Source: Dudresnaya verticillata
Lineage: Eukaryota
NCBI GenBank assembly: GCA_977862235.1
Contig: OZ374557.1
Span: 3,534,001-3,598,000 of the forward strand
Reading direction: 5' to 3'
Length of the DNA: 64,000 nucleotides
Under the pieces are notes generated by a model that saw nothing but the letters and a program-made list of their open reading frames with translations, was not told the DNA's origin and made no database searches. Below, one piece after another: positions 6,264-55,550 of this stretch (positions are counted from its first letter, which is position 1; each line of letters starts with the position of its first letter). The position numbers and the translations under genes were made by a program.

Positions 6264-6299
6264 CCGCCGGCCCCCGCGCGCGCCGCCGCCGCGCCGGCC

Positions 6300-7557: not shown

Positions 7558-7596
7558 CTCTCTCTCTCTCTCTATCTCTCTCTCTCGCTCTCTCTC
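7558..7596. repeat. (CT)n microsatellite
   Basis: Interrupted CT dinucleotide run. Confidence 0.9.
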
Positions 7597-9037: not shown

Positions 9038-9712
9038 TGTGGTGAAGTGAGCCGTGGCGCGCACGCGACACGCCGACGGCGAGCCAACCGCAACGGATGA
9101 TGTGGCAATACGCCACGCTGATGATCTGGCAACGTGTAACCGTGTCGGATGTCGTGCGCATTGCTGTACGCCGGTACGCATTGCTGTACAGCAGTGAGGC
9201 GCACCAACTATATCGGAGTATTTGTAGTATTTATTCTTTATTTTTAGTGAGTATCTGTACAGTATGTAGAGTAGTGCGCCAGCCAATGAGAATGCTGCGC
9301 ATGTCCGTGTCGGAGATTGGGACCAGCAGGGCCGATTCCACCATGGGTCCAGACCACTAGGGTCTGGACCCCACGGACCGGACCGCTCGGTGCCACTCTG
9401 ACTTCTATATAAGGGCGGCACCGCAGCGGCTCCTAAGGTAAACGGGTAAGCAACCTTAGCCCAATCCTTTACGGTTTTCCCCGCGCCGAGCCCGTTGCGG
9501 TCTACCACCACCACCGTTACGGAGTCCGTCCCGGCACTTGTACCACCCCCTTGTCTGTTGCTTCCCAATATCCGTCTCGGTTAGCCGCTCGCTGTTCTCC
9601 CGTTACGGTGCGAACTGCTCTACCACCCCGTGGAGGTATTGTTGCTCTCGTCCGTTAAGGAAAGTCAGGCCAGCTGTCCGTCTCGGAGTTCGTCGGTTTT
9701 CACTACACCACA
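9038..9712 (+). repeat. 5' LTR of A1
   Basis: TGTGGTG...CACCACA termini; TATATAA at ~9406; about 7 substitutions versus the 3' LTR. Confidence 0.97.
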
Positions 9713-9717
9713 TCTTT

Positions 9718-9736
9718 TGGTCTCCCGACCTAGAAC
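9718..9736 (+). promoter_or_regulatory. Primer-binding site of A1 (TGGTCTCCCGACC..., possibly tRNA-Tyr)
   Basis: TGG-initiated, just downstream of the LTR; the same 19-mer follows the 5' LTR of B1. Confidence 0.75.
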
Positions 9737-9860
9737 ACCGTCACGGTTGGAAGAAAAAGCCGTCGAAATCCGCTACGGTAGGAATTCGGCTGTACCGACA
9801 ACCCGTTACGGAATATTGGATAGACAAGCCAGAACAACCGTTGTGTTCCGTTAAGCTATC

Positions 9861-12800
9861 ATGCAGAACGAAGAACACGCAGACCCTCCCGTTACGGAAC
9901 CTAAAGCGGGTGACACTACCCCCGCTGCGCGCAGTCTGCGCAGTGAAGGAGGTGAAATCCGTTCCGGAGTGGAGAACCCAGAAGAGATCCTAAAGGGTGC
10001 TGCTGGTAAAGCTCCCCGTTCCCGTGTCGGATCAGACGCCTCCAAGAAGGCAGCTCTGCAACCCAAGCCGGAATCCCATCGGGTCCACTGGGTCCTGTCG
10101 GAGGTCCTTTCTAGGGTGTTAGAGCATCTCCGATTGGAAGTACAACCTGGAATGGTAAAAGAGGTGGAGATATCCCTCTCGGAAACTGTTCCGTCTTTGG
10201 TTAATTCCTATCTGGAGCAGCACCTTCCTCGGATATTGCAAGCTTTAATCCTACAGGAAAAGGTGGCCGCCGAGCTCGAGAGCCAGATTGCTCCCGGCAT
10301 GGCAAGGCCTCCCGCTACGGAAGCTTTCACTGAGCAACCACCGTTACGGAATGACTTCCCGGTCGAGGGAAGAACGCAGCAGCCGCAACAACCCCCCGTT
10401 ATGGGATTGCAGTCGGGCACAGTACCCTCTGGGCCACTGCCACCGGCTCCCGTAACGGATTCTCAACGTCAATACGCCCCTACGGGACCAACACACACTC
10501 AGCCACCGTTACGGTATTCACCTGGACACGTAGATATGCCTACGCCAGGGCGCTATCAGCAAGAGCGCTATACCGTTCCGGTTCGATCAGGTGGAGGCAG
10601 CGACCATCTCAGCGATGCGTCCAGCTCACCCCATCCGAGTCGGAGGACCGGTCGAGGTTGGCATAAACGAGATGCCCGACACTCCCGCTCTGACCCTCCC
10701 CGTCGGTCGCACATGGGCGACCACACCCAGCGACGACGCCACCAATCCGGTAAGGAATCCAACGAGAGCAGCTCAGAGGATAGTCAACACCGCCGCCGCA
10801 AGAGGAGAAACAGAAGATCGCGGAAACGCGAAAAAGGGCATGACTCCTCTACCTCTACGGATTCAGACTCAGAGAGTTCTTCCGTAACGGATAGAGAGAA
10901 TAGGCACCGGGCCAGAAAACACAGTGCCAAATCCGGAAAGGTGAAGGTAATCCGGCCGCTACATGACAAGTTTGTCAAGGCGCTAGATTACCGCACCTAC
11001 CGATTGGATAAGAGGAGTAAGACATACGGCTCTAAGTTCTCACAGAACATGAGCCGTATACGGAAGAAACTCGACGTCCAGATGTCGTCCCATACATTCG
11101 ATGGGACGGACCCTATTACCGTCTTGGGATTTCTCGCCAAGTTCCGTGACGGTTGTAACATCAACGGCATCGCCGAAGGGGTTGCCGTCTGGTGCTTCCA
11201 GTTTTTCCTTAAAGGACAGGCCGAAGCCCTTCTACAGGCTAGGCTTGCTGGAGGTACCATGGCGGTTGACGTGGAGCAGGCCGAGATGCTCCGCACATAT
11301 TCCGAGGTGGTGAACTTTTTATTGAGAACCTACGCTACGGATGAAGTGATTGCTGAAGCCTATACGGATGTCAGCAACTTCAGACAAACATCCGCCATGA
11401 CGGAAGAGCAGTTCTCGAACCAGCTCTGGGCCAAGGCTCTCCGTTGCGGTACAGTATTTTCCGATCGGGCATTGAAGTCACTGTTCGTTGAAGGACTCCT
11501 ACCGGGTACTCGTCAACAGATGAGAAATTATCTAGCGACGCATTCCCAGTTGGATTACCAGGCCATCACTCGCTATGCGACGGGCCTCGGTCAGTCCCAT
11601 CGGGCAGCTCGACGCCAAACCGTTCCGGCTCACATCTTTGATGGGCGCACTAAAGCGCGCCCATCTAAGGTGTTGTCGCTGGATTCCGTATCGGATGTAC
11701 ACTATGAGCCGCAAGGGAATCTTTCCGCTACGGATAATCAAGTGCTAGCCGTCGAGGGAGGCCACGGTGCCGCTACGGGAACGAGCACGGGGGTTACCTT
11801 TTCTACCCCGTACTCCTCGCCCCCGCAAAGCGTCCACCCTACTCCGCCCATGATGCCACGCGCGCAAGGTCCCCCCTATGGTGGATCTCGCCCGGCTCCT
11901 GGCCCCCAACTGTGGTGCAAGGTGAGGGCTGCCCCTTTTTCGCTCTGAGCGTATTATATGCCAACGTCCACCGACGGAACGTCCACCGCCGTTGGCGCGC
12001 GAACACGTCATCGACGATTGGCCCACGGGCATACGGCCGCCGTTACCCCGCGCGGCGCGGCGCACGCGCCCACTGTACGGCCAGATCCGGATGCACGATC
12101 CCGATCGGCCGGGCGCAGGGCGCCCGCCTGTAAGCTTGGCCCGGATCCGGATCGGATCCGGATGGAACTTCGAGATCCGGCATCCGGATCCACCATGATG
12201 TAAGGAGCGCGCCTGTAAGGGCCGCGCGCCAGCAATGCTGGCCGGGATCTGGATCCGAATCCGGATCACCCGCAACGCTACACGCATGCGCCTGTAAGCT
12301 ACTCCTGAGCTCCCGCGCGCGCGGCTGCATGGCGGCGACGACGTGTCAGACGCTCGACGACGTGACACGCGTCCTGAGTTCCCGCGCACCGCGCCCACCG
12401 CCGTCGCTCACGTAGTATATTAGGTAATCCGTCTGCGACGCTGAGTAAACCCCGGACAAGCCGGCCTTGGTCCAGACTTCCCCGTTCCGCTCGCGCGTAT
12501 CCTACCGCTGCCTACGGCTAAGCGTCTACCTCCCGTGCTTCCACGTCTCTACCCGTCCTTGACGTGTTTTCCTTTTGTTCCTTTCTGTTTCCCTTTTCCC
12601 TTCCTTCACACCTTCCGCCTCGGGCGTCTACAGTCCGCCCAAGGCGTGTCCCTTTGCTCTACCACCAAGTCGCCCACGGCGGGATCACCCCTCGCCAAGG
12701 GCGCAGCTACCCACCGAGCCCCGAACTGCTCGGCGGTCCATCGTCTACAGACGCTTTGCACCACACCAACAGCAGCCGAGTCACCGTTACGGAAATAATG

Positions 12801-13201: not shown

Positions 13202-16200
13202 GGGCGCCGCCATCCCCGCCTCACGGCGTTCCACCTCTCGCGAGTGTGGACCCGCCAGGGGATCGCCGAGATACCGTTACGGAACTCCTATTGGCTTATC
13301 AGACCAATGATACTATCTTCTTTATGCAACATCAAAATTACAAGATGCAAATTACCGTGGGACGGACAGATAGCGTGATACTTCCTTTAATCTCCGTCTT
13401 GGACTCTGGCGCTGGGCCCAATCTCATTAGTGCCAGGCGCCTTCCGCGCCAATGGCTCCCACTCATACGCCCAGCAGCCAGTCCTCCATTACGGGATGCG
13501 TCTAATCGCGCTATACGCCCTCTTGGTCAGATCCAACTTTTCGTCCGTATCGGAGAGCTCCGTGCTCGCGTCCAGTTTCTAGTGGTCGCGAACTTGGCGG
13601 CTCCCTGTATTTTGGGAACTACCCTCATCGACCGCTACGTGAAGGCAATACTCCCTCCGTTACGGAAAGTTGTTTTTCATCATTACCCACCGGTATCCCT
13701 TGTTGGTCAAGCCAAAATTCCGAAGACGGGAACCACTGCAACCCTACAGCCCTCACCTCTCTCTACCGCTACGGTTTCTCAGAAAATTCGTTTAGCAAAA
13801 TCTACCCTTATTCCCCCTATGACTCAAACCACCGTAACGGTTAATACCCCACGGGTGGGTTATGCTTTCTACAAAATCATCCTAAGCCGGCTTTTAAGCA
13901 CCTTACGTTAATGGCTAATGGTACTATGGATGTTGTACCTAACAAACCGTTTCGGATCTGGGTCTCTAATTTTTCTAACAAGCCGGTACGGTTGCCTAAA
14001 TCTACTGTCGTGGGCCTCGCTACTGCTGCCCCCTCTGCTATTTTTACCGTTGAAAGTATACCTCCATTTAAGGAGGGGGAGGAATTATTCAATCATTTAA
14101 TTCTAACCCTACCTCCGAAAAGGCCAGCAGCATCTCCCCTCACGACAAGGAAGTAAGCAAACCCGTAACGGAAAATACAAATACTACCGACTGGAAGGAT
14201 CAAGTCCATATCGGCACAGAAGAAGCATCGCTCCGCAAACGGATTTTAACCCTACTCGAGGAATATAAGTCGATGTGGAGTGGCGATCTGGGCAACATTA
14301 CAGCTGCCAAGCACCGCATCGAGTTAACTCCAGGAGCTAAGCCAGTATACCAAGCCCCATACCGTGCCGGACATAAGCAGCGAGATCTCGAAAAGACAGA
14401 GATCGATCGCATGCTTTCCGCTAAGGTAATTGAACCGGCCTCATCGGAGTGGGCCAGCCCCGTGGTTTTCGTTCCAAAAAAGGACGGCACCATGCGGTTC
14501 TGTGTTGACTATAGAAGGCTCAATTCCGTAACGGTTAGGGACTCATATCCCTTGCCCAGGATGGATGAGTGCATAGATTCCCTTGGGGAAGCTACTGTAT
14601 TTACCACCCTGGATTGCAATAGCGGATATTGGCAAGTCGAGATTCCGGAAGAGGAAAGGGACAAAACTACTTTCACTAGCCATTTTGGCTTATACCGTTT
14701 TCGGAGAATGCCATTCGGATTGAAAAATGCACCGGCAACCTTCCAACGGGCAGTGGATATAATCCTTTCTACGGTTAAATGGCAATTTGCCCTCGTCTAC
14801 CTAGACGATGTAATTGTCTACTCAAAAACCGTTACGGAACATTTCCACCACCTGAAGGAAGTCCTTACGCTTTTATGATCCGCTGGGGTAACGTTGAAAT
14901 TGTCAAAGTGTGACTTCTTCAACGCGTCTGTACAATACCTGGGGCATGTTATCCGTCCCGGAAAATTAGAAGTGGATAATAGAAATATCCAATCCGTCAA
15001 GGTCGCGAAGCCACCGACTAACCAAACGGAATTGCGATCCTTCTTGGGAATGTGCAACGTGTATCGTCGTTTTGTACCCAACTTCGCTCGGATTTCAGCA
15101 CCGCTAAATAAGAAAACCGGCAAGGGCTCACCCTTTGAGTTTGGGATTTTATCCGATACGGAATATAAGGCCTTCGAGGAACTGAAGAGACGCCTTATCT
15201 CTCCACCTATATTGGCTCTACCCCGTCACGGATATAAATATACGTTGGACACGGACGCATGTGACCACCAAGTCGGCTGTGTCCTTCTGCAGGAACAACC
15301 GAATGGCGATCAACTCCCTATTGGATATTGGAGCCGAAGCCTCACCGATGCGGAGAAAAATTATACGACAACCGAAAAGGAATGCTTAGCCGTGGTCTGG
15401 AGCATGTTAACACTCCGACCCTACCTTTACGGTGACAAGTTTATTCTCCGAACGGATCACGATGCCCTGCGGTGGATCTTGAACCTCGCAGACTCATCTG
15501 GCCGCCTTTCCAGGTGGAGGCTCCGCCTATCGGAATTTGAATTTGAGGTGCAATACCGTCCTGGAATTAAGCATCAACTCGCCGATGGGATGTCGCGACT
15601 CCGAACGGATGGCGGTGACGATAGACCTTTGGATGAAGAGATACCCTGCTTTATCGCCGAAAATACCGTCGACGGATTATATGAGCATGGAGTTTATTTA
15701 ACCGATTGGGCTACATCACAAGAAACCGCTACGGAAAATAACGTAATATGCGCCGTGGAGCCCGCCAGTGGGAGCGCATCCGCCTCCCCTGATAAGCCCG
15801 ACGCAATACCGTCACGGTTTACTGTAATCCAAGAATCCGACGTTAAGGATGAGACAATTACCAGGGAAGAGTTCCTCGAAGCGCAAGCCAGAGACCCTTT
15901 CTGTCGTCTCAAAGCCGATACGGTAGGCTCCCCTGGATCACAGTTTGACTATGACCGTAACGGATTCTTGGTACGCAAGTCCCAATTGGATGGTGCTCTA
16001 CAGAAGGTGGTGCCCTAAAGAAGGTGGTGCCAAGCGAACTCCGTGGACGGGTATTGTATTTATCCCACTACACCCTGATGTCGGGTCACCTAGGCGGAAT
16101 TAAGATGTATTACACACTCCGACAGGATTATTATTGGCCTCATATGGCCAACGATGTATTTGAATCCGTTCGGACATGTCGCTCCTGTGTGAAGACAAAG

Positions 16201-17598
16201 GGAACCCGTTTTCGGAATCAAAGATTTATGAAGCTCTTCCCCGCTAGCGGACCTTTGGAGTTTGTCGCTATCGACATTCTCGGGCCACTTCCGAAGACAA
16301 AACGGGTTTATGTCTACGTCTGGGTAATTACCGATCGGTTCTCTAAGCTGACGCGCTGTATTCCGTTACGGACAACAACGGCCGTTGTGGTGGCTAATAC
16401 CTTTCTGGACTTTTGGGTGTACGCCTACGGCGCACCCCAATTTGTCCTAACCGATAACGGACCGCAGTTTACTGCTAAGTTCTTCGACGCGGTGTGTTCC
16501 TTACTCGGAGTCAGGCACCTGCTCACCGCTGCCTACCATCCGCAGACAAATGGGCAAGCTGAGCGATTTAATAAGACAATCGCTCAAAGTTTGCGCCATT
16601 ACGTTGAGGATCATCACTCCGATTGGGATCTGTACCTGCAACCGTTGACGTATGCGTACAACATGCAGGGGCACCGTGTTACGGAAACAACGCCATTTGA
16701 TTTGGTGTTGACACGCCACCCATCGGACATTGTTGTACGAGGGGCTCCTGTCGAGCATCAAGAAACCGTTACGGAAGGGCGTATGACCCCGGTGCTACAT
16801 AAGCGGAGTACCATGCGCCGTTTACGGTATGCGCTCCAAACAGCGCGCACGAAGCAAACAGTGGCTCAGCAAAAAGCCAAGGCACTGTTTGACCGTAAGG
16901 TGCGCTTTAGGCCCATAATCCGTAACGGAGATCAAGTCTACGTCGACAGGCCGCCCCATAACTTAAGGCCTACCGAACGCCGTGAACGGGACCGATTGGA
17001 AGGCAAGCCGGATGATGTAGGCGAGGTGGCTCAGGAAATGAAGAAACTCCTTCCGAGAGCCACGGGGCCTTACGAAGTGGAATCCGCAACGGAACATGTT
17101 GTTACAATCCGAAAGGAAGGGGTATTGATCCCCGTGAGTATCGATCGTATCACGAAGGTTCCGATCGGAGTTGCGGTTCAGCCGGCACCCTTAACAGTGC
17201 CGCCTGTCACGCCATCAACCGTCTACGGAGAAGTAGTACCTCCTTCTGAAGGTACTACTCCCTCCGCGACGGAACCACTGCAAGCCAATACGGAATATGT
17301 GATCGACAAGATTGTCGGTCACCAAATCGACAAGATTGTCGGTCACCGCGACGAACCTACTGGGATGACATACAAAGTCCGCTGGTATCGTTACCCTCCG
17401 GATCAGGACACTTTTGAGCCCGCGGAGGAGTTACCGCAGAACTTCATCTACCGATATTGGAAGCAAAAGAAAAAGACATCCGCTAAGGGTAAGCCACGGC
17501 GACGTGCTAAGCCAACACGTCACTCACCGTATCGGACAGTTAGAATGCTGGGGTGTGATAACACACAACGTTTATCGCAAGCTAAGATCGAGGCATAA
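13177..17598 (+). pseudogene. pol: pol of A1 (protease, RT, RNase H, integrase, chromodomain), disrupted
   Basis: LDSGA, YLDD, TDACD, HHCC, TDNG, ERFNKT, YKVRW..DTFEP motifs. Frameshifts near 13850 and 14080, TGA at 14876, short duplications at ~16002-16031 and ~17302-17347. Confidence 0.95.
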
Positions 17599-17632: not shown

Positions 17633-20481
17633 CTAAGAGTTACGTCGACGCCGTTTCGGAGCAGGGGCCACTGTATCTTCCTCGTTGCTCCCCTGACCCG
17701 TTCGTAAGCCGGGTTCCTCACTCGGATCCGACTGGAATACGCATTGCGTATTATCTCCCAAGACGCGAATCGCGCTATCCATGCGCCGACGCTGACGACG
17801 GACCACCGCGCGGAGATGAATTACTTGTTCCATCAACCCCTCCGCTAAGGTTAGCGCTTCCTGAACGGATCCTGGCAATGGGAAGCGCTGCGTACGGCAA
17901 ATGCCCCGTAGCACCTGTAACCCACTTTCCGTAGCGGCTAGATGAGTCGGAACCGTAACGGGGGGATCCTCATCTTCTTGAAACTCTACCTTTGGGGAGA
18001 TCGACGGCTTATCCCTACCCTCGGCTTCGAGCGAATGTTCCGTTGAGGAAACCACCAATACGGATGGTCCCGACTCGGGTGAAGGTACGCCTTTCCGCAG
18101 CGGTGGATCCGTGTCCTTCTCTGGCGAGGCAGTATCGCTTTTCCGTAACGGTTCCGGACTTGGCGCAAGAGCCGAGGGCTTGTCTCCAGTTGCCCCAACA
18201 TTTGGGCGCCTTGCAGCCACTTCCGATACGGTGATCGGTGCCTCACTCACCGCTGGTGTAGGAGTGGGCGCCGACAGAGGAGCACTTGGTAGGGGCGGTT
18301 CCGCGGCGACAGGCATTTGCGTCGCAGGAGACAGTGCCGCCGGTACAGCATCCGGCGCCACTTCCGAAACGGTCTGCTCCTTTGAGACTCCCTCCTTGGA
18401 TGGTGCCGCAAGCTTGGGCACCGCCCTAGTCGGTGCAACCACGCCTATGGGCGTTGGGGTCTTATCCGATACGGGAGTAGTAGTCTCATGAGCCACCTCG
18501 CGAGACGTGGGTGTCACGGCCACCGGAAGGATTGGAGCGGGTGTCTTCTCGCTACCCGCTGCCATTGAGGCCACGGGCATGACCTCCTCCTGGTCTTCCA
18601 CGAAGGGGCCAGCCTCTTGCTGCCTCACCGTAACGGAATCGCGTGGGTCGGTTGTACGCGGACGCCCCGCTGTCCCATGACAGCTTCCCCAATCTTCAGC
18701 CCCATCCAAACCGTCAGGTACGCATCCCTTGGTGCTTGGCGAGAGGCATAGTCCCGATGGGCCTGCACCTCTAAGGCCAACCATTCCGGACGCGGGTCTT
18801 CTCGATGAAGGAAATAGGGCTCACCCACCCCGGACCTCAGCGGGGGCACCGATAGGACACGGTCCTCGTCCGAATTATACCCCAAGAAGCCCGGAGTGCG
18901 TTGCCAATCTTGCTCTCCGTGTACGGATAAAAGACGCTCAACCCGATGGAGAGGGTATGCCGACCCCGTCACCAAATCGGCTACGCCGACTTCGCGAATC
19001 AGGGCGATCACCGTTACGGGAAGTTGGAAAATACGGCCACAGTCTCCTCCCGGCAGGTCATCCTCATCCCGTGGGAAGCATCGCCAGTCAGCTAACTTGG
19101 TGTTATACCGAACTCCGTAATAGGCCACCTGGAGCCACGAGAAGAGCACCAGCATGGCCCATTCCGATCGGAAGATGCGCCACAATACATCGAGCTGATC
19201 TTGATTCGGGGGACGTTCTCCGTTCGGATGCTTGTCGTTCCACTCCCGTTCGGTGAGTAAGTCCGCCGAGAAGTACGCTACGACGGACGGCGTGGGGACA
19301 GACAACCAACGGGTCACCTCATAACGCGCCCACCATGACGGAGCTGTAAGGTACAACTCACGACGCACCCGATACGGAAGATGGAAGAACTCCTTAGTGT
19401 TCCAAATATGCAGGATTGGCGAGCCAACCTGTATTCCGTCACGGGAACGAGTTCGCAAACGGTGTTCCGTCGCGGCATCGTCCTTCCACCCATCGGCATA
19501 GCGGAACCAATATACCGATTGGTCATAGGGGCGGTCGAAGCAAATGAATTGCACTCCGACCGGCGCACCCCGAAGACGGAAACCTGTGGCCAACAGGTGA
19601 CTCACCTTGGCGGTATATCCTACCTCCCCATGGCAGCGATACCACAACAAATCCGAAACGGTAGAGGTCCTCGCTTGACAATAGCCATGCACCCATCGGC
19701 TTTGCCACACAAACTCTCTCCGATTCGGAACAACGCCAATACGTTGATTCGCCTTGAAGGGTTGCGCCATGACGGCCTTGTACCTTCTCGCTTCCAAGAC
19801 GGTTGGATACTTCTCAATGAAGAGGTCCACCGTCATCGGGGGCCTAATCTTAGCCCTTTCCGCATCGGTTCTAGCCGGGCGCCCCGCGCGATGGTCAAAA
19901 TGGTGTCCCGGCCAATAACCACTCGGGACAGGGCCCTCTCCGTCACGGGTATGCACTAACGGCCACCAAGGCCCCGGTGCAAGTGGGTTTCTTTGCGAGG
20001 GGCCACGCATCCGTCTCGGTGTACTTGAGGAAGGATGAGGACTGGAAGCCATCCTACCACTCGGCGTCGATACCGGTGTCGATGGTGTCCGTAACGGAAT
20101 GGCCGGTAGGTCTGCCAAGTTGAGCTCCTCGCCACCACGACGAAACGCATCATCGCGCTCCTTGGTTGGCGCCTCTACGTCACGGTGAGTCTCTGCACTC
20201 CCTGGTAGCAAGGGCCTTGTGGCAGCGCTCGCAGCAAACCGATTCGGATCATAGACAGACCACCCTCGGCTCGCTGATGGAGCCGGTGAAGGTTCCGTCA
20301 CGGCGATGCTCATACGACCGCCCGTCGCGGGTCGCGTCGCTGCCGCTGAGGAAGAAGCCGGCGCTTGCGTCGAAGCATCCGTCACGGTTCGCGCGCCCTG
20401 CGCCCCAGTTGTGGAAGCAGCGCGGGAACGCCTTGTCGGTTGAAAGGGCGACGGTGAGCGCTTAGCCTTCTCCCCTGCCAT
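17633..20481 (-). CDS. Antisense accessory ORF of A1 (~950 aa after correcting one frameshift near 18716); function unknown
   Basis: ccaccATGG at 20481. ORF-track frames 18625-20784 and 17633-18784 read as one frame at the same junction in A2 (DAYRNGLDGVEDWGSC). Ends in the basic PKRRRRNS. Confidence 0.8.
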
Positions 20482-20601
20482 GGTGGGAGAAGCGCGCACG
20501 AAGGAGGAGGAAAAGTTGCGCACGATACCGTATCGGTTGTGTGTGGGTGTCGCAGCAAAGGTAATCCGTGACGGTGGGCGCCCGAGGACGTGGCGCCATT
20601 T

Positions 20602-20612
20602 AAGGAGGGGGG
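20602..20612 (+). promoter_or_regulatory. Polypurine tract of A1
   Basis: AAGGAGGGGGG just before the 3' LTR. Confidence 0.85.
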
Positions 20613-20614
20613 TC

Positions 20615-21289
20615 TGTGGTGAAGTGAGCCGTGGCGCGCACGCGACACGCCGACGGCGAGCCAACCGCAACGGATGATGTGGCAATACGCCACGCTGATG
20701 ATCTGGCAACGTGTAACCGTGTCGGATGTCGTGCGCATTGCTGTACGCCGGTACGCATTGCTGTACAGCAGTGAGGCGCACCAACTATATCGGAGTATTT
20801 GTAGTATTTATTCTTTATTTTTAGTGAGTATCTGTACAGTATGTAGAGTAGTGCGCCAGCCAATGAGAATGCTGCGCATGTCCGTGTCGGAGATTGGGAC
20901 CAGCAGGGCCGATTCCACCATGGGTCCAGACCACTAGGGTCTGGACCCCACGGACCGGGCCGCTCGGTGCCACTCTGACTTCTATATCAGGGCGGCACCG
21001 CAGCGGCTCCTAAGGTAAACGGGTAAGCAACCTTAGCCCAATCCTTTACGGTTTTCCCCGCGCCGAGCCCGTTGCGGTCTACCACCACCACCGTTACGGA
21101 GTCCGTCCCGGCACTTGTACCACCCCCTTGTCTGTTGCTTCCCAATATCCGTCTTGGTTAGCCGCTAGCTGCTCTCCCGTTACGGTGCGAACTGCTCTAC
21201 CACCCCGTGGAGGTAGTGTTGCTCTCGTCCGTTAAGGAAAGTCAGGCCAGCTGTCCGTCTCGGAGTTCGTGGGTTTTCACTACACCACA
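20615..21289 (+). repeat. 3' LTR of A1
   Basis: Direct repeat of 9038-9712. Confidence 0.97.
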
Positions 21290-21326: not shown

Positions 21327-22459
21327 TGTGGTATAACGGGCGTTGACGCCCTGTAAGGAGCCACGTGGACACGAGTCCTCTGTAAGGAATGACAGGCGCA
21401 CAACTGCCCGGGTGATATGGCTGGTGCTCCGATTGATTTCATTGCTGGAACGCTCCTGCGCTGTAAGGCAACACGTGTACAGAGTTGATCTGTAAGGCAC
21501 ACTGCTCCAGATGATATGGCACTGTGCCATTTGGGGATTAACTATGGCCGCACCATCGCGCCATGCATTGCTGGCGGATGTTTGCCTCGCGGCGCCTGAC
21601 AGTGGCGCCGCGCTCGCCTTGTGGCCTGACCACTCATCCCTATCTAAGGACATATCCCACCTGTATTGTACAGTATTAGCTAAGTATTAGCCATAGAGCT
21701 CTAGCTGAGCGAGGAGCACCTTTTCGGCTCTCGCCGTATTTATGGGGCCCCTGGGTAGCAAGGGCCCGGCACTAAACCGGCAACGGTCTGTGCCTTGGGT
21801 TTTCCCCTTTTTGGACGCTTACGGTGCTACCGCTACAACTTCCCTTTGGGCGTCTACAAGCCCTGTCGTCTACGACGAATTGCTCTATTCAGCAGGGTTC
21901 GCCTTTCCCTTTTTCCTTTGTTAGGGCTTGAAGCCCTTTCAAGTCTCTACCACCCCTTTACCGAGCTACCAACCACGCGAGTGGGATCGCTCTTTGAGGA
22001 CAGCTGTCGTGCCGTGTCGCCGTCTCTGTTGGCTTCAAAGCCAGTCTACTACAGTGGTCTCCCGACCTAGAACAAGTTCTCAGGGTCGGACCCTTTTTCT
22101 ACCTTACCCTCGACGGGTCGAGTCAAGATATTCAAGACAGGACGTTGTCCGTTGAAGTTTCAAGAATCTTCCTTCGAAGGGTAAAACCCTAGTCGTCTAA
22201 TTGTCGACGGTTTCTACGCTTTATATTAAGCTCCGGAGTGACGTCAAATCTTGTGAGCATTCAAAATACATTTAACGGTTTTAAAACCGTCCCCAGAAGT
22301 GTCCCTCAGCGGCGGATTGACGCCCGGGTTGAGCCCGCTTCAACAGGGTTTCCGTGCAACCTGAGAAAACACGTGTAATCTTACAGTTCGGAACCGCCGA
22401 GAGGCCTGGGAAGAAGTCCCAGCTACCTCGCCGGCTGAGCCGAGAATTGTATTGGCAAT

Positions 22460-28100: not shown

Positions 28101-29741
28101 AGAACGGGTTCTACATCTGGGGCACTATCCAGAGATGGCAGGTCATCCCGGTGGCACCAGAATGTATCATAACTTGCGCCGACAGGTCTATTGGCCTGGA
28201 ATGGCTCTCGCAGTATACTCGACCGTTCGAAATTGTGTCAAATGCGCTCGGGAACGAGTCCAATTACGGCAACATGCTTCGCAGATGAAGCTGTTCCCGG
28301 CTACGATGCCGTTAGAATTCGTGGGGATTGACATGCTAGGGCCGCTACCCCGATCGAGCAAGGGTAACGAGTACGTTCTCGTAATACCGATCGCTTCTCA
28401 AAGCTCACCAGGGCTGTCCCATTGAAAACGGTAACGGCGTACACCGTGGCAAAAGCGTTCTGCGAACATCGGGTATACACTTACGGGCCTCCCCGCTATG
28501 TTTTGTCGGACAACGGTCCGCAGTTCGCATCAAAGCTTTTCATAGCCGTCTGTGGCATACTTCGGATCAGGAATCTGTTCACGTCCACTTACCATCCACA
28601 GACGAATGGACAAACCGAGAGGTTTAATAGAACCTTGTTGGCTGGACTGAGACACTTCATCTCCGATGACCAGAAGGACTGGGATGAATTCACGTCGGCT
28701 TTGACGTACGCGTATAATACGACCGTTCACCGCGGGACCGGTCTCGCGCCCGTCGATTTGGTTTTATCTAACCCTCTCATGACCATTCTAATGGAAAGAG
28801 CCGAGACAGTAGACGTTGAAAACGTTCCAGCAACTAACGTGAAGAAACGGCTGACTACCCGGCTCGAGAAGCTGATGGATACAGCGTTACCACGCCTGCG
28901 GATGGCCCAGCGACGATATGAAGTTAACTTCAACAATCGTATGCGGTTGACTAACCAAAACGTACGCCCAGGCCAATGGGTATTCCTCGAAAGGGAAAGG
29001 AAGATGAAAGACGCCAAAGGCGTGGCTCGAGAAGGGAAACTATTTCCAAAAGCGCTAGGCCACTTTAAGGTACTCGAACGAGGAACACACACAGTCGTGT
29101 TGCAAAAAGCTGGCGAAAAAGAGTTAGTCTCTCTGGATCGTGTAACATTGGCCCCATCGCCAAACGATGAGTTCAGCGCTATTGGGCAAGTGCCCCCTAT
29201 CGTAGAATCTGGGCCTGACGACGCGGAACCAGCAGACCCACCTTCGAGGGCAACGCCCCCGAATACCAGTGATATCGAAAGGGCACCAGCTCAAACCGGC
29301 CGTGAGCTATTGGAAACGGTCCTCGAGGCCGCAGATGCGCCGACTGTCTCGCCCCCACGGCGAGAAAACGATAATATCGATAACGGCGCTGGCCCGGTTT
29401 CCATAACCGCACCCGCTCATGAGGTTCTCATACTGCCTGAATTAGGCAATCGCGCGGCAATGGTATCCAGGGATAATAGTTCTCCTCGGCTTGTTGCCGG
29501 ACCAACTGCTACAGAAGCCGAAGAGACGGCTCCCCGCCGTAAGTTCTCACGCTTCAAGAAAGCTCCCCCTCGGGAGTATGTTTATGACAAGTTAGTCGGA
29601 TACGACGCAGAGTCGGAAATGTACAAGGTACGATGGTACCAGTGCCCTGCCTCTCAGGACACGTGGGAACCACGACGGCATCTCCCGGATAACTTAGTCA
29701 AGCGGTATCACCGTAAGAAGGGAATCCCTCTTCCCGCCTAA
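25161..29741 (+). pseudogene. pol: pol of B1 (PR, RT, RH, IN, chromodomain), two frameshifts
   Basis: LDTGA, YLDD, TDACD, HPG..C..C, SDNG, YKVRWY..DTWEP; frame breaks near 26200 and 28385. Confidence 0.95.
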
Positions 29742-29893
29742 CTACAGGGATACCAATCTGTATATCAGCCTGTGGCCAGAGGCAAACCCTGTTTCATGAT
29801 GCCAAGGGCGTACCTTCTCCCCCTCCCTCTGGATAAGAGAGGCGGGTGGTAGTGTAACACAAGACCGATGTCTTAGAGGAAGCGCCAATGCGA

Positions 29894-30008
29894 TGTATAA
29901 TATGGAAGGTTCAAGACCTTGGATAGATGAAATGGGTGTATAATATGGAAGGTTCAAGACCTTGGATAGATGAAATGGATGTATAATATGGAAGGTTCAA
30001 GACCTTGG
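29894..30008 (+). repeat. 43-bp tandem repeat, ~2.7 copies
   Basis: TGTATAATATGGAAGGTTCAAGACCTTGGATAGATGAAATGG(G/A) starting at 29894, 29937 and 29980. Confidence 0.9.
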
Positions 30009-30713: not shown

Positions 30714-32969
30714 CTAATCGGACAATAGGTCGATGACCTGGTCCTCCTCAAGCGGAGGGTTAGGCTGAGGAGCCGAGTGGGATACCACTACTCGACGGAC
30801 CTCGCGCACTATGTGGCGCCCTCGACCAAGTCGACGACTACCACGTTCGCGACGCGATGACATGTTGTTGTCACCACGGATTCCAGCCGCCGGACGCTCG
30901 ATTTCCATCGCATCGACGCCATGCGTAGTGGCAGAGACGTCGGGCTCCACTTCGTCCTCCTCTTTGACGACTAGCTCGGTCTTCTTGACAAGGTCGTCCC
31001 GACCAACTGGAGGCTTCTCTGCCTGGGTCCCCTCTTGAGGATGAGCCATTTTGGGCTTTGAGCCTTCGTTGCCTGGGGCGACCGCGGTCGATCCCAAAGT
31101 CGGATCTGATGCGCTTTGCATCACCTTGGCTTGAGAGCCAATACGTGGGCAGTCTTCGCCCAGAAGCTCCCCCGAGGGGGCAAAGCCGGCTAGCGCCGTA
31201 GTAGGCCCTTGAGGCGTCACCAACGAGGCGACGGCCTCCTGCTGCAACTCTCTCCCGACCGGCTTTGCAGCCGAACCCCCGCCCTTCACCACCGTCGCCG
31301 ACGAATATTCTCGTGGCACAACTGCCATATCCTCGCTCGTTTGAGCACGAGGGTCGAGCCCTACGACGCTGGTCGACTCCATCTTGACTGAAGACGCCCC
31401 AAGATGGCCTATGCCACGACGCGGGGTGATCTCCGCTTTAGCGGCACGTCGGCCCAGGGGAGGAAGAAACGCGAAATGAGCGCGAAGGCGCTCCATCTGG
31501 TCGACAGGACTAGGCGTCCTTATCCACTCACTTTCATAGTCTATCATGACTTCTTCAACCCAGTCTGCAAGACTGTGAATGTTCAAGTGACGAAAGTCCC
31601 AGTGGGCAAAGAGGCGAATGGCCAGACCACGTCTGTTGAACACATCTCGGATGACTTGATCCGCCTTCGCATATGCGGACGCAGTTGGTGCATGGGGCCC
31701 CTGAGCCTGGCCATCGACGGTATTGTCAAATAGCGGGACATCGTCCGGAGTCTGTGGCCCTGGCTCACGCCATTTCGCACTAACCCAACCAGTGGTGACG
31801 CCGGTCATACGAATACCTTCGTCGAGAATTAGAGGGCTCTCCTCAGACGGCTCCGGCTGTATCATATAGTCGGGCAAAACCGGACGCCACTTGAGCGGGT
31901 CAAAGTCGACCCAATCTCCGCGATCGAAGACTGGCGTCAAATGCCCCGTGTTTTCAGGGAGGTGACGATTACGCTTGGAGATCCGAATCCACTTGATCCG
32001 CTCCACAAAGCACAGCAGGGCTTCCAAGTCCTCAGCGTCAGAGTCGTTAGCGGTCAACCCCGCTGGGCCCAGGGCCCTAATCGCCACCCGAAGCGGCTGC
32101 CCTATGAAAAATAATACGCCACGCCGGGCCTCGTAGTCCAGGGTCTGGGCTACCGAGACGACCCACTCATGTCTGAAGATGCTCCATAGCACACTATCAT
32201 CCATGGCCTTCGCCATCATTTCTAGACCCAGATAGGCGATAATGGTGGGAACACCAACGGGCATGGAATAGGACACTTCATAGTTCTTGTGGTCGTCCGG
32301 CACCTGGGGATACTTCCCATTGTAGAATTCCGGCTTGATAGCCGATACCTCTTGGCAATGGCAGGGCACCAAGCAACCCGTCTTATGACGTTCACGACGC
32401 TTGAAGCGAGTATATTCCAACGGCTTCGCCGTCTGCGGGTTGTCGAGGGCATACTTCAAGTTGGATGACTCATCCCATCTCACGATGCGAGCCAAAGTAT
32501 ATGGGAAATTATCCCTGCCCGCACGAATAAGCGGCCGCTCGTGCATGACCATGCTTAGATCCCACTCGCCATTCTGGTGGATCTCTTCCAATGTGTCGGC
32601 GGTCGAAGCTAGCTTCTGAGCTAAGGTGTTGCTCCACGGCACTTCATGCCGGAATCGCACATACGCGAGCTCCCATTGAAGGGTATTGGCATCGCCATAG
32701 AGACGGGGTAAGAAGCGGTTCGTACCGGTTAGGATACTCAAACGCGCTCGCATAAGGGTGTTCCAAACGCGGCTTTGAGCCGTACGACTTCCGCGACGTC
32801 GAATCTCCTCGCGACTGGCACCTGCCCGCACCTTAAGGTGTGCAAGGTCGGTACGCAGGAGCCAGTCGCGGCTATGCGAAACAGCAAACGGCACACCTGC
32901 CGCATCCACCTCGTGCCCGAGCACGTTTGCACTCGAGCCGGCAGCTCCATACGCTAGCGGGGGCGCCAT
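30714..32969 (-). CDS. Intact antisense accessory ORF of B1 (751 aa); function unknown
   Basis: Long uninterrupted ORF; shares YEV...P...AY and VLW.IFR.EW blocks with the A-family antisense ORF; close homologue at 53266. Confidence 0.85.
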   Translation of the reverse strand: MAPPLAYGAAGSSANVLGHEVDAAGVPFAVSHSRDWLLRTDLAHLKVRAGASREEIRRRGSRTAQSRVWNTLMRARLSILTGTNRFLPRLYGDANTLQWELAYVRFRHEVPWSNTLAQKLASTADTLEEIHQNGEWDLSMVMHERPLIRAGRDNFPYTLARIVRWDESSNLKYALDNPQTAKPLEYTRFKRRERHKTGCLVPCHCQEVSAIKPEFYNGKYPQVPDDHKNYEVSYSMPVGVPTIIAYLGLEMMAKAMDDSVLWSIFRHEWVVSVAQTLDYEARRGVLFFIGQPLRVAIRALGPAGLTANDSDAEDLEALLCFVERIKWIRISKRNRHLPENTGHLTPVFDRGDWVDFDPLKWRPVLPDYMIQPEPSEESPLILDEGIRMTGVTTGWVSAKWREPGPQTPDDVPLFDNTVDGQAQGPHAPTASAYAKADQVIRDVFNRRGLAIRLFAHWDFRHLNIHSLADWVEEVMIDYESEWIRTPSPVDQMERLRAHFAFLPPLGRRAAKAEITPRRGIGHLGASSVKMESTSVVGLDPRAQTSEDMAVVPREYSSATVVKGGGSAAKPVGRELQQEAVASLVTPQGPTTALAGFAPSGELLGEDCPRIGSQAKVMQSASDPTLGSTAVAPGNEGSKPKMAHPQEGTQAEKPPVGRDDLVKKTELVVKEEDEVEPDVSATTHGVDAMEIERPAAGIRGDNNMSSRRERGSRRLGRGRHIVREVRRVVVSHSAPQPNPPLEEDQVIDLLSD

Positions 32970-44443: not shown

Positions 44444-47286
44444 TTATCGGCGACGCCGCTTCGGAGTAGAGGCAACTGTATCTTCCTCGTTGCCCCCCTG
44501 ACCCGTTCGTAAGCCGGGTTCCCCACTCGGATCCGATTGGAATGCACGTTGCGTATTGTCTCCCAAGACGCGAATCGCACTATCCATATGCCGACGCTGA
44601 CGACGGACCACTGCGCGGAGATGAATCACCTTCTCCATCAGTCCCTCCGCTAAAGTTAGCGCCTCCTGAACGGATCCTGGAAATTTGAAGCGCTGGGTAT
44701 GGCAAATGCCCCGTAGCACCTGTAACCCGCTTTTAGTAGCGGCTAAGTGAGCCGGAACCGTAACGGTGGGATCCTCATCTTCCTGAAACTCTACCTTTTG
44801 GGATATAGGCGACTTATCCCTAACCCCGGCTTCGATTGAGCGCTCCGTTGAGGAAACCACCAATACGGATGCTACCGACTCGGGTGAAGGTACTTCCTTC
44901 CGCAGCGGTGGAGTCGTATCCTTCTCTGGCGAGGCGATATCGCTTTTCCGTAACGGTTCAGGACTTGACGCGGGGGTCGAAGGCTTGTCACCAATTGCCC
45001 CGGCACTTGGGCGTTTTGGAGCCACTTCCGGTACGGTAATCGGTGCCTCACTCACCACTGGTGTGGGAGTGGGTGACAACAGCTGAGCACTTGTCGGGGC
45101 AGTTCGGCGGCTGCAGGCATTTGCGTCGCAGGAGACAGTGCTTCCGGCACAGTAACCGGCGCTGCTTCCGAAACGGTCTGCCCCTTCGAGCCCCCCTTCT
45201 TGGATGGTGCCGCGGGCTTAGGCACCGCCACAATAGGCTCAACCACGTCTATGGGCGTTGGGGCCTTAACCGATACGGGAGTAGTAGTCTCACGATCCAC
45301 ATCGCGCGACGTGGGTGTAGCGACCACCGGAAGGACTGGAGCGGCTGTTTTCTCGATATTCGCTGCCATCGGTGCGATGGGCATGACCTCCTCCTGTTCT
45401 TCCAAGAAGGGGCCAGGTTCTTGCTGCCTCACCGTAACGGAATCGCTCGGGTCGATTGCACGTGAACGCCCCGCTGTCTCCTAACAACTCCCCCAATCTT
45501 CGACCCCGTCCAAACCGTTACGGTACGCATCCCTTGGTGCTTGGCGAGGCGCATTGCCCCGATGGGCCTGCACCTCTAAGGCCAACCATTCCGGACGCGG
45601 ATCTTCTCGATGAAGGAAATATGGCTCACCCACTCCGGGCCTAAGCGGGGGCACCGATAAGACACGGTCCTCATCCCGAATATGCCCCAAGAAGCCCGGA
45701 GTGCGTTGCCAATCCTGCTCTCCGTGTACGGAAAAAAGACGCTCAACCCGATGGAGAGGATACGCCGACCCCGTCACCAAATCGGCTACGCCGACTTGGC
45801 GAATTAGGGCGATCACCGTCACGGGAAGTTGAAAAATACGGCCACAGTCTCCTCCGGGTAGGTCAGCTTCGTCACGCGGGAAGCAGCGCCAGTCGTATAA
45901 CCTGGTATTGCACCGCACGCCGTAGTAGGCAACCTGGAGCCACGAAAATAGCACCAGCATTGCCCACTCCGATCGGAAGATGCGCCAAAGCACGTCGAGT
46001 TGATCTTGGATCGGGGGACGCTCTCCGTTCGGATGTTCGCGATTCCACTCCCGCTCCGTGAGCAGGTCCGCAGAGAAGTACACCACCACAGAAGGCGTGG
46101 GCACGGATAACCAACGAGTTACCTCGCATTTATCCCACCACGACGGAGCTGTGAGGTAGAGCTCACGTCGCATCCGATACGGAAGGTGGAAGAACTCCTT
46201 GTTATTCCACGTGTGCAAGATGGGTGCCCCCACATGCATTCCGTTTCGATAACGTGTCCGCAATCGGTGTTCCATCGCCGCGTCGTCTTTCCACCCGCCG
46301 GCATAGCGGAACCAATCCACCGACTGGTCATACGGTTGGTCGAAGCAGATAAACTGCACCCCGATCGGTGCACCCCGTAGACGGAACGCCTTGGCCAACA
46401 AACGGCTCACCTTCGCGAAATACCCAACTTCTCCGTGGCAACGGTACCACAACAAATTCGAAACGGTAGTGGTGCGTTCTTGGCAGTAGCTGTGCACCCA
46501 TCGGCTTTGCCACGCAAGCGCCGGCCGGTTCGGCACGAAACCAATCCGCTGGTTTGCCTTGAAGGGCTGCTCCGAAACGGCTTGGTATCGTCGCGCTTCC
46601 AAAACGGTTGGGTAACCCTCGATGAAGTATGACACTGTCATCGGTGGTATCACCTTCGCCCGTTACGCATCGGATCTCGCCGGGCGCCCCGCACGGTGGT
46701 CGAAATGGTGCCCCGGCCAGTATCCGCTCAGGGCAGGACCCTCGCCGCTACGGGTACGCGCCATCGGCATCCAAGAGCCTGTCGTAGGCATCATGCTCCG
46801 CACTGGCACCCGCGACCGTTTCGGAGTGCTGCCTGACGCATATGGGCTCGCACCTATGTTCCGCATCGGGGTTGAGTCTGGAGTCGATGGCGTCCGTAAC
46901 GGAATCGATGGTAGGTCCGCCAAGTTGAGCTCCTCACCACCACGTCGGACCTCCTCGTCGTCATCATTGGTCGAATCTTCTCCGTGACGGTGGGTCGCTG
47001 CATTCCCTAACTGGGTGCTCCTTGTGGCTGGGCCAGCAGCAAACCGATTCGGATCGTAGACAGACCAGCCGCGGCCCGCCGATAGTGCCTGTGACGGTTC
47101 CGCTGCGGTAACGCCCGCGCGACCACTCGTCGTGCGTGGTGCCACAACCGCCGAGGACGAGGCCTGCGCTTGAGTCGAAGTATCCGTAACGGTAGGCGCA
47201 CCCGGTGCTCTCGTCGTCGAGCTCGCGCGGGTACGCCGTGTCGGTTGAAAGGGGGAGGGGGAGCGCTTGCTCTTCTCCCCTGCTAT
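44444..47286 (-). pseudogene. Antisense accessory ORF of A2 (start codon lost, internal stops)
   Basis: Fragments 46663-47145, 45481-46653, 45052-45432 and 44444-45079 align to the A1 antisense protein. Confidence 0.85.
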
Positions 47287-53265: not shown

Positions 53266-54072
53266 ATGGCTCCGCCACACCTGGCATACGGAACGGCAGG
53301 CTCTAGTGGCAATTTCTTAGGACATGAGGTAGATGCGGCTGGAGTGCCGTTGGTGATCTCCCACAGCCGCGACTGGCTCTTGCGTACCGATCTAACACAT
53401 CTAAAGACGCGGGCGGGAGGTAGTCGCGAGGATATTCGCCGCATCGGAGGAAGGACGGCTCAGAGGTGTGTGTGGACCCGCCTCATGCGCACTCGGGTTG
53501 GCATTCTGACTGGTACCAACCGGTTCCCCCGGCTCCTTGATGGCGATGCCGATACTCTGTAATGGGATCTTGCCCATGTGCGCTTTAGGCATGAGATTGC
53601 GTAGAGCAATAACTTGACGCAGAAGTTAAATTCCCAAGCCGAGCTGCTGCATAAGATCCATCAGAGTGGAGATTGGGACCTTCGCATTATAATGCATGAA
53701 CGCCCGCTCATACGTAAGGGTCGGGATAACTTCCCTTATACCATGGCCCGCGTAGTGCGGTCGGACGAGTCGTCGAATCTCAAGTATGCGCTTGACAACC
53801 CACAGACGGTGATGCGGTTGGAATACTCCCGCTTCAAGCGGAAGAATCTTCATAACACTGGTTGTCTCGTTCCTTGTCATTGCCAGAAGGTGACGGCTAT
53901 TAAGCCGGGGTAATATAACGAGAAGTACCCCCAGATTCCGGACGACCACACGAATCTCGAGGTCCCGTACTCGATGCCCGTTGGAACTCCGACTATCGTC
54001 GCCTACCTTGGTCTAGAAATGATGGCTAAGGCCATGGATGACATTGTACTTTGGAGTATCTTCCACCATGAA
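53266..54072 (+). pseudogene. Antisense accessory ORF of E1 (three stops, truncated)
   Basis: MAPPHLAYGTAGSSGNFLGHEVDAAGVP...VLWSIFHHE aligns to the N-terminal part of the B1 ORF 30714-32969. Confidence 0.9.
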
Positions 54073-55550
54073 ACACTGGTTTCCCGCGTTGCAGAATGTA
54101 CTTTCAAAAACAGACTGAAATAAAACGCTTCAAACGTACATGCGTTGGAACGGGGAGCGTCCCCTGAGCACGCTGGTGCAAACGGAGTAGAGAACTAAGT
54201 AGTTCGCGAGTTATGTTGGTTGGCGTGCTAACCCGTCAGTGAGTCTGCAATAATCAATTTTGGTGTAATTTATGAGATTCTTTAATTCGGATTTTGAGGT
54301 AACCTAGGCTATTTCCATGGGCCCCTCACCGCGCAGTATACGCTGCCCCAACAGGGCAGAACTACTCGTCAGTTCAATGCCGCTCCCCCCATGACATGCA
54401 GAGTACTGCCGCACTGTCATGAATTCCCTTCCCGGACTCACTCCGGTGCAACTTCGGGCATTCGTCAACCGCCAACTGCACGCTACCTCTCTACTGCCAT
54501 GCAATCTCTTCTCTTCCCTAGGCTTCAGGACTTGCTCTTCGCAGTCGCACTCGCTCGCTACACTCTCCCTCCTCACCGACACATCGGTTCGTTGTCCTCC
54601 GCGACAACCAAAAACCCCACCGAAGTACTGTAGTCCTTGTTTCACCAACGTTGCAGCATGTGCTGCACAGTGCGACGTCATTCGTGTAGCGCTCTTCCCA
54701 GTGTATACCGTCCTCTCCGTCGACCTACTCCATGTGGTTTGGACTGGGCTCCGGTACTGAATTTTGTCCCACATTGCCGTGAATTCGCCGAGGTCATAAG
54801 TTAGACCTCGTTCCCCGCTCCGGACACCCCGTACTTCACCTGTGCAGTTCCTATACATGTAGCGAGCTGCAGCTCGCCAGAAACCCCGGTCAAAACCACA
54901 AACGGCCATTTCTAGCCGTCCACTTGAACCAAATTCGAAAGTGCACTCGAAACTGTCTCCCGTAGTATTCCACACCACGATTCCTTACTTGCGCCCGTTC
55001 CCCTCTTCAAGCGCCTCAGCATGATAAACTTACACAACAGCTCCTGTGCTCACTTTATCTGTAACTAACACTCCGCAACTACATTTACTCTAAACCTCAG
55101 TCCGCTTCAGACTCCGGGTCTTCTTCATCGACCTCCACCGCCCACCACCCTAAGAAAACAGTAGTATTCCCTCCAGCACCACCTTCACCGCCTCCCCAAC
55201 TGCGACAGCATCCGCAATCATGACCCGTGCCCTCCCCACCAGGTCCAGACGAAGCCATATGGTGTCACTGGTATGACGCCTGGCGCGCGCCCGAGCTTCT
55301 CCTAGCTCGGCGCGCAGTCTCCGCACCTCCAGCACCAGCGTTTCCGGTGCTTCATCGAGACTCTCCATCTAAGTCGTCTCCACCAACCCTCAAACCGACA
55401 CTGTACCACTCCCTTCTATAGACGGAACCGGGCACCATTCTGAAGTTTAGTTGACCACGTTTACACCAACTCAGCACATCTTTTCCCTATTGCGACACCG
55501 CTGCAACGTCGGGAATCGTTAGCATGCAAGCCGTTCTTGGTCCATAGTTG

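Follow-up and report, generated by a model that had tools for sequence, protein, structure and literature searches.

The question raised by this locus is whether a long antisense reading frame behind the polymerase (pol) genes of a retrotransposon is a gene of that element and, if so, what its product might do. The DNA analyzed, 64,000 nucleotides (nt) of contig OZ374557.1 and here called the window, contains several long terminal repeat (LTR) retrotransposons tandemly arranged on the plus strand. One of them, element A1, is an 11.6-kb chromodomain Ty3/gypsy element (plus strand, LTRs at 9038-9712 and 20615-21289), and the antisense sequence occupies positions 17633-20481 on its minus strand. 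An earlier note on this DNA had described the sequence as one gene of about 950 amino acids (aa). We find that it is indeed a real protein-coding gene under purifying selection in the element lineage, but that in A1 it is present as two open reading frames (ORFs) of 618 and 383 aa, with a frameshift near 18717. It very probably represents a genuine accessory gene of the element. As the best overall explanation we consider it probable that A1 holds a frameshifted copy of an accessory gene of about 949 codons, whose product, predicted to be nuclear, would help or regulate the element in trans. The parts of the gene in A1 are listed below, with A2 denoting the other full copy of the same element family (family A).

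18625..20481, minus strand: upstream antisense ORF of 618 aa, with a disordered basic N-terminus (aa 1 to ~185) and an alpha-helical conserved core (aa ~186 to 588)
17633..18784, minus strand: downstream antisense ORF of 383 aa, with, from about 18715, a Pro/Ser/Thr linker, a C-terminal amphipathic helix and a terminal KRRRRNS
18716..18718 (near 18717), minus strand: one-base gap in A1 versus A2, the point of frame change (MAFFT alignment of A1 and A2, three-frame translations)
20482..20614, minus strand: 133-nt leader, reaching from the edge of the 3' LTR to the ATG; TTAAAT (20598-20603) lies in it, as does the polypurine-tract complement

The gene is encoded on the minus strand, with the integrase-chromodomain gene on one side and the 3' LTR on the other, and its stop codon (17633-17635) is 35 nt away from the integrase stop (17598) on the opposite strand. 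The stretch 17633-20481 comprises 2849 nt, which is not divisible by 3, and is covered by two overlapping minus-strand ORFs; residues of the 618-aa ORF past 588 are out of frame. Reading across the break gives a lineage product of about 949 residues. Because A1 is frameshifted, the product of about 950 aa is the unbroken reading of the lineage and not of the A1 copy. An intron at 18625-18784 in place of a frameshift was ruled out, since A2 reads the homologous stretch in one frame with a matching protein.

Comparison of A1 and A2 indicates purifying selection on the antisense protein. Ratios of nonsynonymous to synonymous substitution rates (dN/dS) were estimated by the Nei-Gojobori method with all six frames compared. 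In the antisense frame, the core (417 codons) shows proportions of nonsynonymous (pN) and synonymous (pS) differences of 0.086 and 0.475, respectively, and a dN/dS of 0.12, whereas a value near 1 had been named beforehand in the earlier note as the result that would speak against a gene. The dN/dS is 0.19 in the C-terminal helix region (106 codons), 0.33 in the N-terminus (170 codons, pN 0.217) and 0.46-0.58 in the linker (pN 0.116-0.13). Four of the five other frames give dN/dS values of 0.63-4.0 (at least 0.93 if the linker pieces are set aside) and show 2-23 codon pairs with a stop in each stretch compared. The plus-strand mirror frame, with 2-19 stop-containing codon pairs per stretch, has a lower dN/dS of 0.22-0.53 because it shares its third positions with the antisense gene. 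Differences between A1 and A2 in 19971..19042 number 37, 36 and 127 at codon positions 1, 2 and 3, respectively. Not a single insertion or deletion (indel) separates the copies over the 1776 nt from the ATG to the A1 break, where nucleotide identity is mostly 63-83%, and three of their six indels are found at 20493-20546, at or adjoining the leader and at most 65 nt upstream of the ATG. In 1000 shuffles the longest open run averaged 169 codons and never exceeded 362, compared with 618 in A1; the dN/dS pattern and this shuffle test together rule out a chance ORF. The claim that the core is more conserved than the linkers holds for amino acids (pN 0.086 versus 0.116-0.13) but not for raw nucleotides, since saturation of synonymous sites leaves A1 and A2 with just 63-83% identity over most of the core. 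The dN/dS values record selection in active lineages before insertion, and the stops and frameshifts are later decay.

The divergence between A1 and A2 is distributed unevenly, and the gene is a mosaic. The features concerned are as follows.

44444..47286, minus strand: A2 antisense homologue in a more decayed state: ATA replaces the start codon, codons 208 and 602 are in-frame stops, and there is a gap of a single base
19060..20540, minus strand: mosaic block comprising the leader, the N-terminus and most of the core, with edges taken from finer windows of synonymous divergence (dS)

The LTRs of A2 begin at 36205 and 47421. Between A1 and A2, dS is 0.05-0.29 in gag, protease, reverse transcriptase (RT), RNase H and integrase. 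For the final sixth of the core together with the linker and C-terminus it is 0.17-0.31, and it reaches 0.6-1.7 from the N-terminus to core residue ~480, with a dN/dS of 0.05-0.12 at residues 181-480. Because its dS is far higher, the block at 19060-20540 traces back to a common ancestor far older than that of the remaining parts of A1 and A2. Recombination, for example template switching between co-packaged RNAs, likely brought a different and equally functional version of the gene into one of the lineages, and the mosaic block suggests that the gene acts as an exchangeable module between element lineages. Hypermutation was ruled out as the origin of the diverged block, since the changes fall mainly on third codon positions and mix transitions with transversions.

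Homologues of the gene occupy the same slot in a second element family of the window, family B, and survive in a relic.

30714..32969, minus strand: family B antisense ORF of 751 aa, in the slot between the chromodomain ORF and the 3' LTR
53266..54114, plus strand: B-type antisense relic in an element of opposite orientation, with 72% aa identity to B residues 1-282 and three in-frame stops (tblastn)

The family B element has LTRs at 21327-22053 and 33759-34485 that are 99.2% identical. Identity between families A and B is 63% in RT, 44% in RNase H and 30% in gag, compared with about 21-27% in the antisense core. The B antisense ORF matches that of A1 in BLASTP at E 5e-05 over a single motif-rich stretch and matches a profile made from 43 outside sequences only at E 5.4e-16. 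In the codon comparison of the relic with B, pN is 0.165 and pS 0.727. All three full-length elements in the window (A1, A2 and B) carry the antisense gene, as does the one relic. The antisense gene is a trait of this element group and not a one-off capture.

Several smaller features were seen around the family B element and its LTRs. The stretch of about 790 nt between the B antisense ATG and the polypurine tract (32970-33758) contains repeated ...GGAGCCGAC...-type motifs and may be a B-type leader or promoter region. The bases directly before the ATG that are common to B and the relic at 53266 read AGTCACATCG. A 43-bp tandem repeat of 2.8 copies with 96% matches is found at 29887-30008, in the interval that separates the chromodomain ORF from the end of the antisense ORF. 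Both LTRs of A2 are interrupted, the 5' LTR by a 356-nt piece (36831-37186) whose start reads as an inverted B-LTR end, and the 3' LTR by a 732-nt insert (48047-48778) that corresponds in size to a B LTR plus a 5-bp duplication. An inverted solo family B LTR, 98.8% identical, is located at 35136-35863.

Relatives of the antisense protein are present in protein databases. A phmmer search of 1.84 billion cluster representatives identified 94 relatives at E ≤ 1e-3 (counted at 50% clustering), 30 of them at E ≤ 1e-10. The best match has an E of 2.3e-33 and 34% identity, and all matches cover query residues ~190-550. A word-indexed protein search found no relatives, either with the 618-aa ORF or with a 45-sequence alignment. 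Two of the 30 clusters looked up carry names, comprising four hypothetical proteins of Gracilariopsis chorda, among whose accessions are PXF39757.1, PXF42436.1, PXF45335.1 and PXF45952.1, and one transcriptome-assembly ORF of Gracilaria changii, which tells neither strand nor transcript start. The remaining clusters stem from ENA or Logan contigs. In red-algal genomes, members of the family are probably wrongly annotated as 'hypothetical proteins' of the host. Long relatives measure 927-1004 aa and share a common architecture in which a variable N-terminus leads through a DHRxxR motif into the core, followed by a Pro/Ser-rich spacer. Recurrent core motifs are W..RW.H, E.R.R, LCVPTPP..AY, SE[FW] and GRLF.L, and the closest relatives also possess a C-terminal amphipathic helix and a terminal KRxR. 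The terminal PKRRRR described earlier is present, the reading ending in PKRRRRNS, and KRxR is aligned in A1, A2 and all six close relatives examined, which were picked for such a tail; a loose basic-tail pattern is found in 13 of the 36 stored proteins of at least 480 aa. A search with the family B polymerase returned 5825 proteins, and three of 120 among the matches listed carry names, namely the red alga Agarophyton chilense, a frog and a bacterial bin.

The composition of the protein agrees with the previously described layout of a disordered N-terminus, a Trp/Tyr/Arg-rich core of about 400 aa and a Pro/Ser/Thr linker. Residues 1-185 are rich in P, S, T, A and R, with an isoelectric point of 11.4 and 0% Cys, and residues 186-588 contain 4.2% W, 5.2% Y, 11.2% R and 1.2% Cys. 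The linker of about 270 aa is acidic and consists of 15.5% P, 10% S and 9% T. The C-terminal 89 aa contain an R-rich helix, and the reading ends in ...APAPKRRRRNS. In the helix VQEALTLAEGLMEQVIHLRAVVRRQRRRMDSAIRVL, hydrophobic residues occur, by eye, at seven-residue spacing over about five heptad turns, a pattern that would fit a short coiled coil. No clear membrane segment is present, the highest 19-residue Kyte-Doolittle mean of 1.58 lying within the folded core, in line with the earlier statement that the protein is not env-like.

The core is modeled with confidence and resembles nothing known. Structure prediction, proposed earlier as a check, was carried out with AlphaFold2 on the 45-sequence alignment and gave for core residues 171-588 a mean predicted local distance difference test score (pLDDT) of 83.4 and a predicted template modeling score of 0.84. 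In the model, a chiefly helical domain ends in a small subdomain of helices and strands. When this last subdomain (residues ~470-560) is modeled alone, it has a pLDDT of 83.7 and an order of helix-strand-helix-helix-strand-strand, recalling a winged helix. No Pfam family was found for the antisense ORFs by hmmscan at E ≤ 0.1. Among 24 long relatives, 21 are without a Pfam family and three have weak coiled-coil or low-complexity rows that are almost all under the curated cut-offs; the two rows above them come without a matched stretch. None of the relatives scanned has a Pfam match in its core. At E ≤ 1, the 45 family members hit 38 Pfam families, the commonest of which, a coiled-coil model, occurs in three of the 45. 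A sequence profile search of the PDB returned a single row at E 0.12 and the ESM Atlas gave no usable match. As modeled, the core fold matches no known family and no solved or viral fold. A selected, confidently modeled family that is like nothing known is a good target for structural and functional work.

Putative expression signals surround the start codon. The ATG context, the pyrimidine-rich leader and the TTAAAT overlapping the polypurine-tract complement were all found as first described. The minus-strand ATG at 20481 has the context CCACCATGG, the 60 nt ahead of it are 68% pyrimidine compared with 49% across the whole gene, and the minus-strand TTAAAT (20603..20598) is located about 120 nt upstream of the ATG. 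This box is the complement of the ATTTAA abutting the polypurine tract. Family B has a comparable box, TTAAAA, beside its polypurine tract, but its ATG is about 790 nt distant, and neither the pyrimidine-rich leader nor the CCACCATGG context is present in family B and the relic. Because the box flanks the polypurine tract and B has it without the same spacing, conservation of TTAAAT needs no antisense promoter. The box is likely kept in A2 solely through its polypurine-tract position and is weak evidence for a promoter. The A1 3' LTR is a candidate antisense promoter site, by analogy with other elements.

If A1 carries a broken copy of a trans-acting nuclear helper or regulator, its intact form could have worked as follows. 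An antisense promoter of its own, situated at the 3' LTR or within it, would drive transcription of the gene, and the product would enter the nucleus through the conserved terminal KRxR and pair via the C-terminal amphipathic helix. The basic N-terminus and the Arg/Trp/Tyr-rich core could then bind nucleic acid or chromatin and promote the element's own expression or integration, and element lineages would swap gene versions through recombination. This particular mode of action (nuclear entry, pairing, binding to nucleic acid or chromatin, help with expression or integration) is tentative and draws on architecture and analogy. A more far-reaching proposal, which we hold to be doubtful, is that the gene encodes a lineage-specific nuclear factor of unseen fold that recognizes the DNA or chromatin of its own element and switches on or protects its own family, with red-algal lineages trading versions.

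Four rival explanations were weighed. The protein could be an anti-silencing or counter-defense factor, with each lineage's version lifting host silencing from its own copies, in which case it would resemble VANC, the accessory proteins of Arabidopsis VANDAL DNA transposons. The antisense gene evolves faster than RT (63% identity between A and B in RT versus about 21-27% in the antisense core), A1 and A2 combine near-identical gag/pol with anciently diverged versions of most of the gene, as expected from module exchange, and a basic disordered N-terminus together with KRxR would fit a nuclear, chromatin-directed protein. Since no residue pattern or fold is tied to known silencing suppressors, and the low core dN/dS of 0.05-0.12, from a single pair of copies, gives no hint of positive selection, we regard such a role as rather unlikely. 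The gene might instead be a captured host gene carried as a passenger, or a look-alike host family, with no role in the element life cycle. In Gracilariopsis chorda the relatives carry the plain annotation 'hypothetical protein', and G+C content at third codon positions is somewhat higher in the antisense gene (0.56-0.62) than in RT, RNase H and integrase (0.52-0.57). A passenger would be expected in one or few copies, whereas the gene is found in the same slot in three of three full-length elements of two families and in a relic, remained under purifying selection while lineages diverged, and has relatives forming multi-member clusters on short contigs; we therefore judge a passenger improbable.

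Two further alternatives concern the RNA and the position of the gene. Regulatory antisense transcripts are discussed for several retroelements in parts of PMC7264820, and the gene converges on the 3' end of the integrase gene with 35 nt between stops, so that the antisense RNA itself could be functional, regulating the element through double-stranded RNA formed with genomic RNA while the ORF is incidental. Such a function does not predict an excess of 127 versus 37 and 36 changes at third positions, a dN/dS of 0.12, zero indels over 1776 nt or 94 protein homologues, and is very improbable. A structural or envelope-like particle protein, equivalent to env, finds some precedent in the env-like ORFs that the region behind pol houses in some Ty3/gypsy elements, according to parts of PMC7264820. 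With the opposite orientation, no signal peptide or membrane segment (Kyte-Doolittle maximum 1.58, inside the core), no match to viral protein models (BFVD) and a terminal basic motif of nuclear type, this assignment is hardly credible.

Several points weigh against a trans-acting nuclear helper or regulator. Both full family A copies are broken, A1 once and A2 four times, and the window as it stands cannot make the protein. The supposed promoter motif is explained by its polypurine-tract position, and B is without the same spacing. The selection estimates consist of two pairwise comparisons with saturated synonymous sites. Foldseek with the core found nothing at E ≤ 1e-3 (best E 0.7 in the PDB and 0.5 in BFVD), VIA-align with the core against 48,161 chains reached a best Z of 3.1, and no fold, family or motif connects the core to DNA binding or any activity. 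For the last subdomain the best Foldseek E is 1.1, with several non-significant winged-helix rows (E 1-6), and the best VIA-align Z of 4.0 belongs to an unrelated protein. The red-algal host is suggested by the two named clusters and the one Agarophyton chilense polymerase match, and the frog and the bacterial bin are named as well. No loci of relatives were found in metagenome contigs with the core protein and a 2-sequence alignment, viral contigs yielded one matching stretch and no usable relative locus, and prokaryote genome contigs gave no relative with the 2-sequence alignment. That all 94 outside relatives are borne by elements is an assumption.

Antisense genes in this position are known from other reverse-transcribing elements. 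Passages of PMC7264820 and PMC11963269 describe antisense ORFs from pol to the 3' LTR (aORF-3R) as gene23 of maize Grande, in rice RIRE2 and as ORF4 of Silene Retand, the latter carrying the TRP28 / Transposase_28 domain PF04195. According to the same passages, the plant aORFs are transcribed from their own promoter and Grande GENE23 is nuclear (PMC7264820, PMC11963269). The gene described here is similar in slot and orientation (opposite strand, end of pol to 3' LTR), in being a family-wide feature rather than a one-off capture, and in having no similarity to known proteins. It differs in its host group, here probably a red alga, in its carrier, a chromodomain element as opposed to the non-chromovirus Tat/Retand lineage, in the much larger protein of ~950 aa, whose ~400-aa core has a fold without a match, and in that the A1 ORF begins only 133 nt from the LTR. 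For Grande GENE23 nuclear localization is shown, whereas the protein here has the conserved terminal KRxR only. Of the 38 families that the 45 members hit at E ≤ 1, 25 were listed and do not include PF04195, and no ORF matched it at E ≤ 0.1. PvRetro13 also bears an antisense extra gene between pol and the 3' LTR. We know of no antisense accessory gene behind pol in flowering-plant or fungal Ty3/gypsy elements with an established function. Many Retand elements have tandem arrays between pol and the 3' LTR, as described in parts of PMC11963269, and the family B repeat at 29887-30008 is a likeness to these.

A fungal and a retroviral example are also comparable. The antisense gene brtn of Boty-like chromodomain Ty3/gypsy elements of Botrytis, cited in PMC7264820, likewise belongs to an element with a chromodomain integrase, is reversed between chromodomain and 3' LTR and has a helical, possibly pairing C-terminal part. 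Fungal brtn-type products are small and contain Cys motifs, in contrast to the ~950 aa here, and the gene described here is unspliced as far as the alignment shows. The Pfam scans gave no zinc-cluster family of the six-cysteine Zn(II)2Cys6 type, and Cys makes up 0% of the N-terminus and 1.2% of the core. HBZ and APH-2 of human T-cell leukemia virus types 1 and 2 (HTLV-1/2) are retroviral antisense genes transcribed from the 3' LTR, as stated in passages of PMC7264820 and PMC11963269. They resemble the present case as antisense genes beside the 3' LTR of a reverse-transcribing element and as nuclear proteins with a helical dimerizing region, properties that the antisense protein here may have as well. 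There is no sequence or domain relation, element class, host and protein size differ, and no basic leucine zipper (bZIP) match was obtained in Pfam scans of the ORFs and the 45 members. Among the matches listed, no published antisense or additional ORF in red-algal LTR elements was found. Slot and orientation are thus of an already known kind, and new are the size of about 950 aa, the unrelated protein family, the unmatched core fold and the host group. That a third protein family, far larger than the plant and fungal ones and unrelated to them, sits in this slot in elements of probably red-algal origin suggests that the position has been filled repeatedly, answering a general need in the LTR-retrotransposon life cycle.

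The carrier element is organized as follows.

9038..9712, plus strand: 5' LTR with TG...CA ends, followed by a primer-binding site (blastn of the LTR pair)
9861..11948, plus strand: gag-region ORF of 695 aa (ORF list), 30% aa identity to family B gag
13324..17598, plus strand: pol in four ORFs (Pfam, except the protease region)
13324-13911, plus strand: protease region, assigned by position and a D[ST]G-type motif, no Pfam family
14273-14878, plus strand: RT (RVT_1 1e-26)
15050-16018, plus strand: RNase H (RT_RNaseH 4e-35)
16078-17598, plus strand: integrase plus chromodomain (rve 5e-13, Integrase_H2C2 1e-10, Chromo 5e-10)
20615..21289, plus strand: 3' LTR (blastn of the LTR pair)

The LTR pair of A1 is 98.8% identical over 679 nt (blastn) and flanked by a 5-bp target duplication, and the polypurine tract (20602-20612) adjoins the 3' LTR on its inner side. 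Together with the LTR ends, a primer-binding-like sequence and the order RT-RNase H-integrase-chromodomain, the purine tract and the duplication identify the carrier as a chromovirus-type element. Family B gag weakly matches Retrotrans_gag (E 6e-05, 23.6 bits, just below the Pfam cut-off of 24.1). The pol genes of A1 are interrupted by several breaks in the present copy.

Positions 4000-8000 of the window are 74% G+C and hold tandem repeats rich in G+C (5321-6491); the ORFs found there on either strand, 253-389 aa long, matched no Pfam family. Pol is split into several ORFs in both young-looking elements, A1 (13324-17598, LTRs 98.8%) and B (25440-29741, LTRs 99.2%). As they stand A1 and B are non-autonomous. 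The antisense gene is broken once in A1, and the 751-aa ORF of B is unbroken. The primer-binding-like sequence of about 19 nt after the 5' LTR is identical in A and B (9713-9740; 22054-22080), despite 63% identity in RT. A perfect tandem duplication of 24 bp at 17302-17347, within the integrase ORF of A1, doubles eight residues (IDKIVGHQ / IDKIVGHR) directly before the chromodomain.

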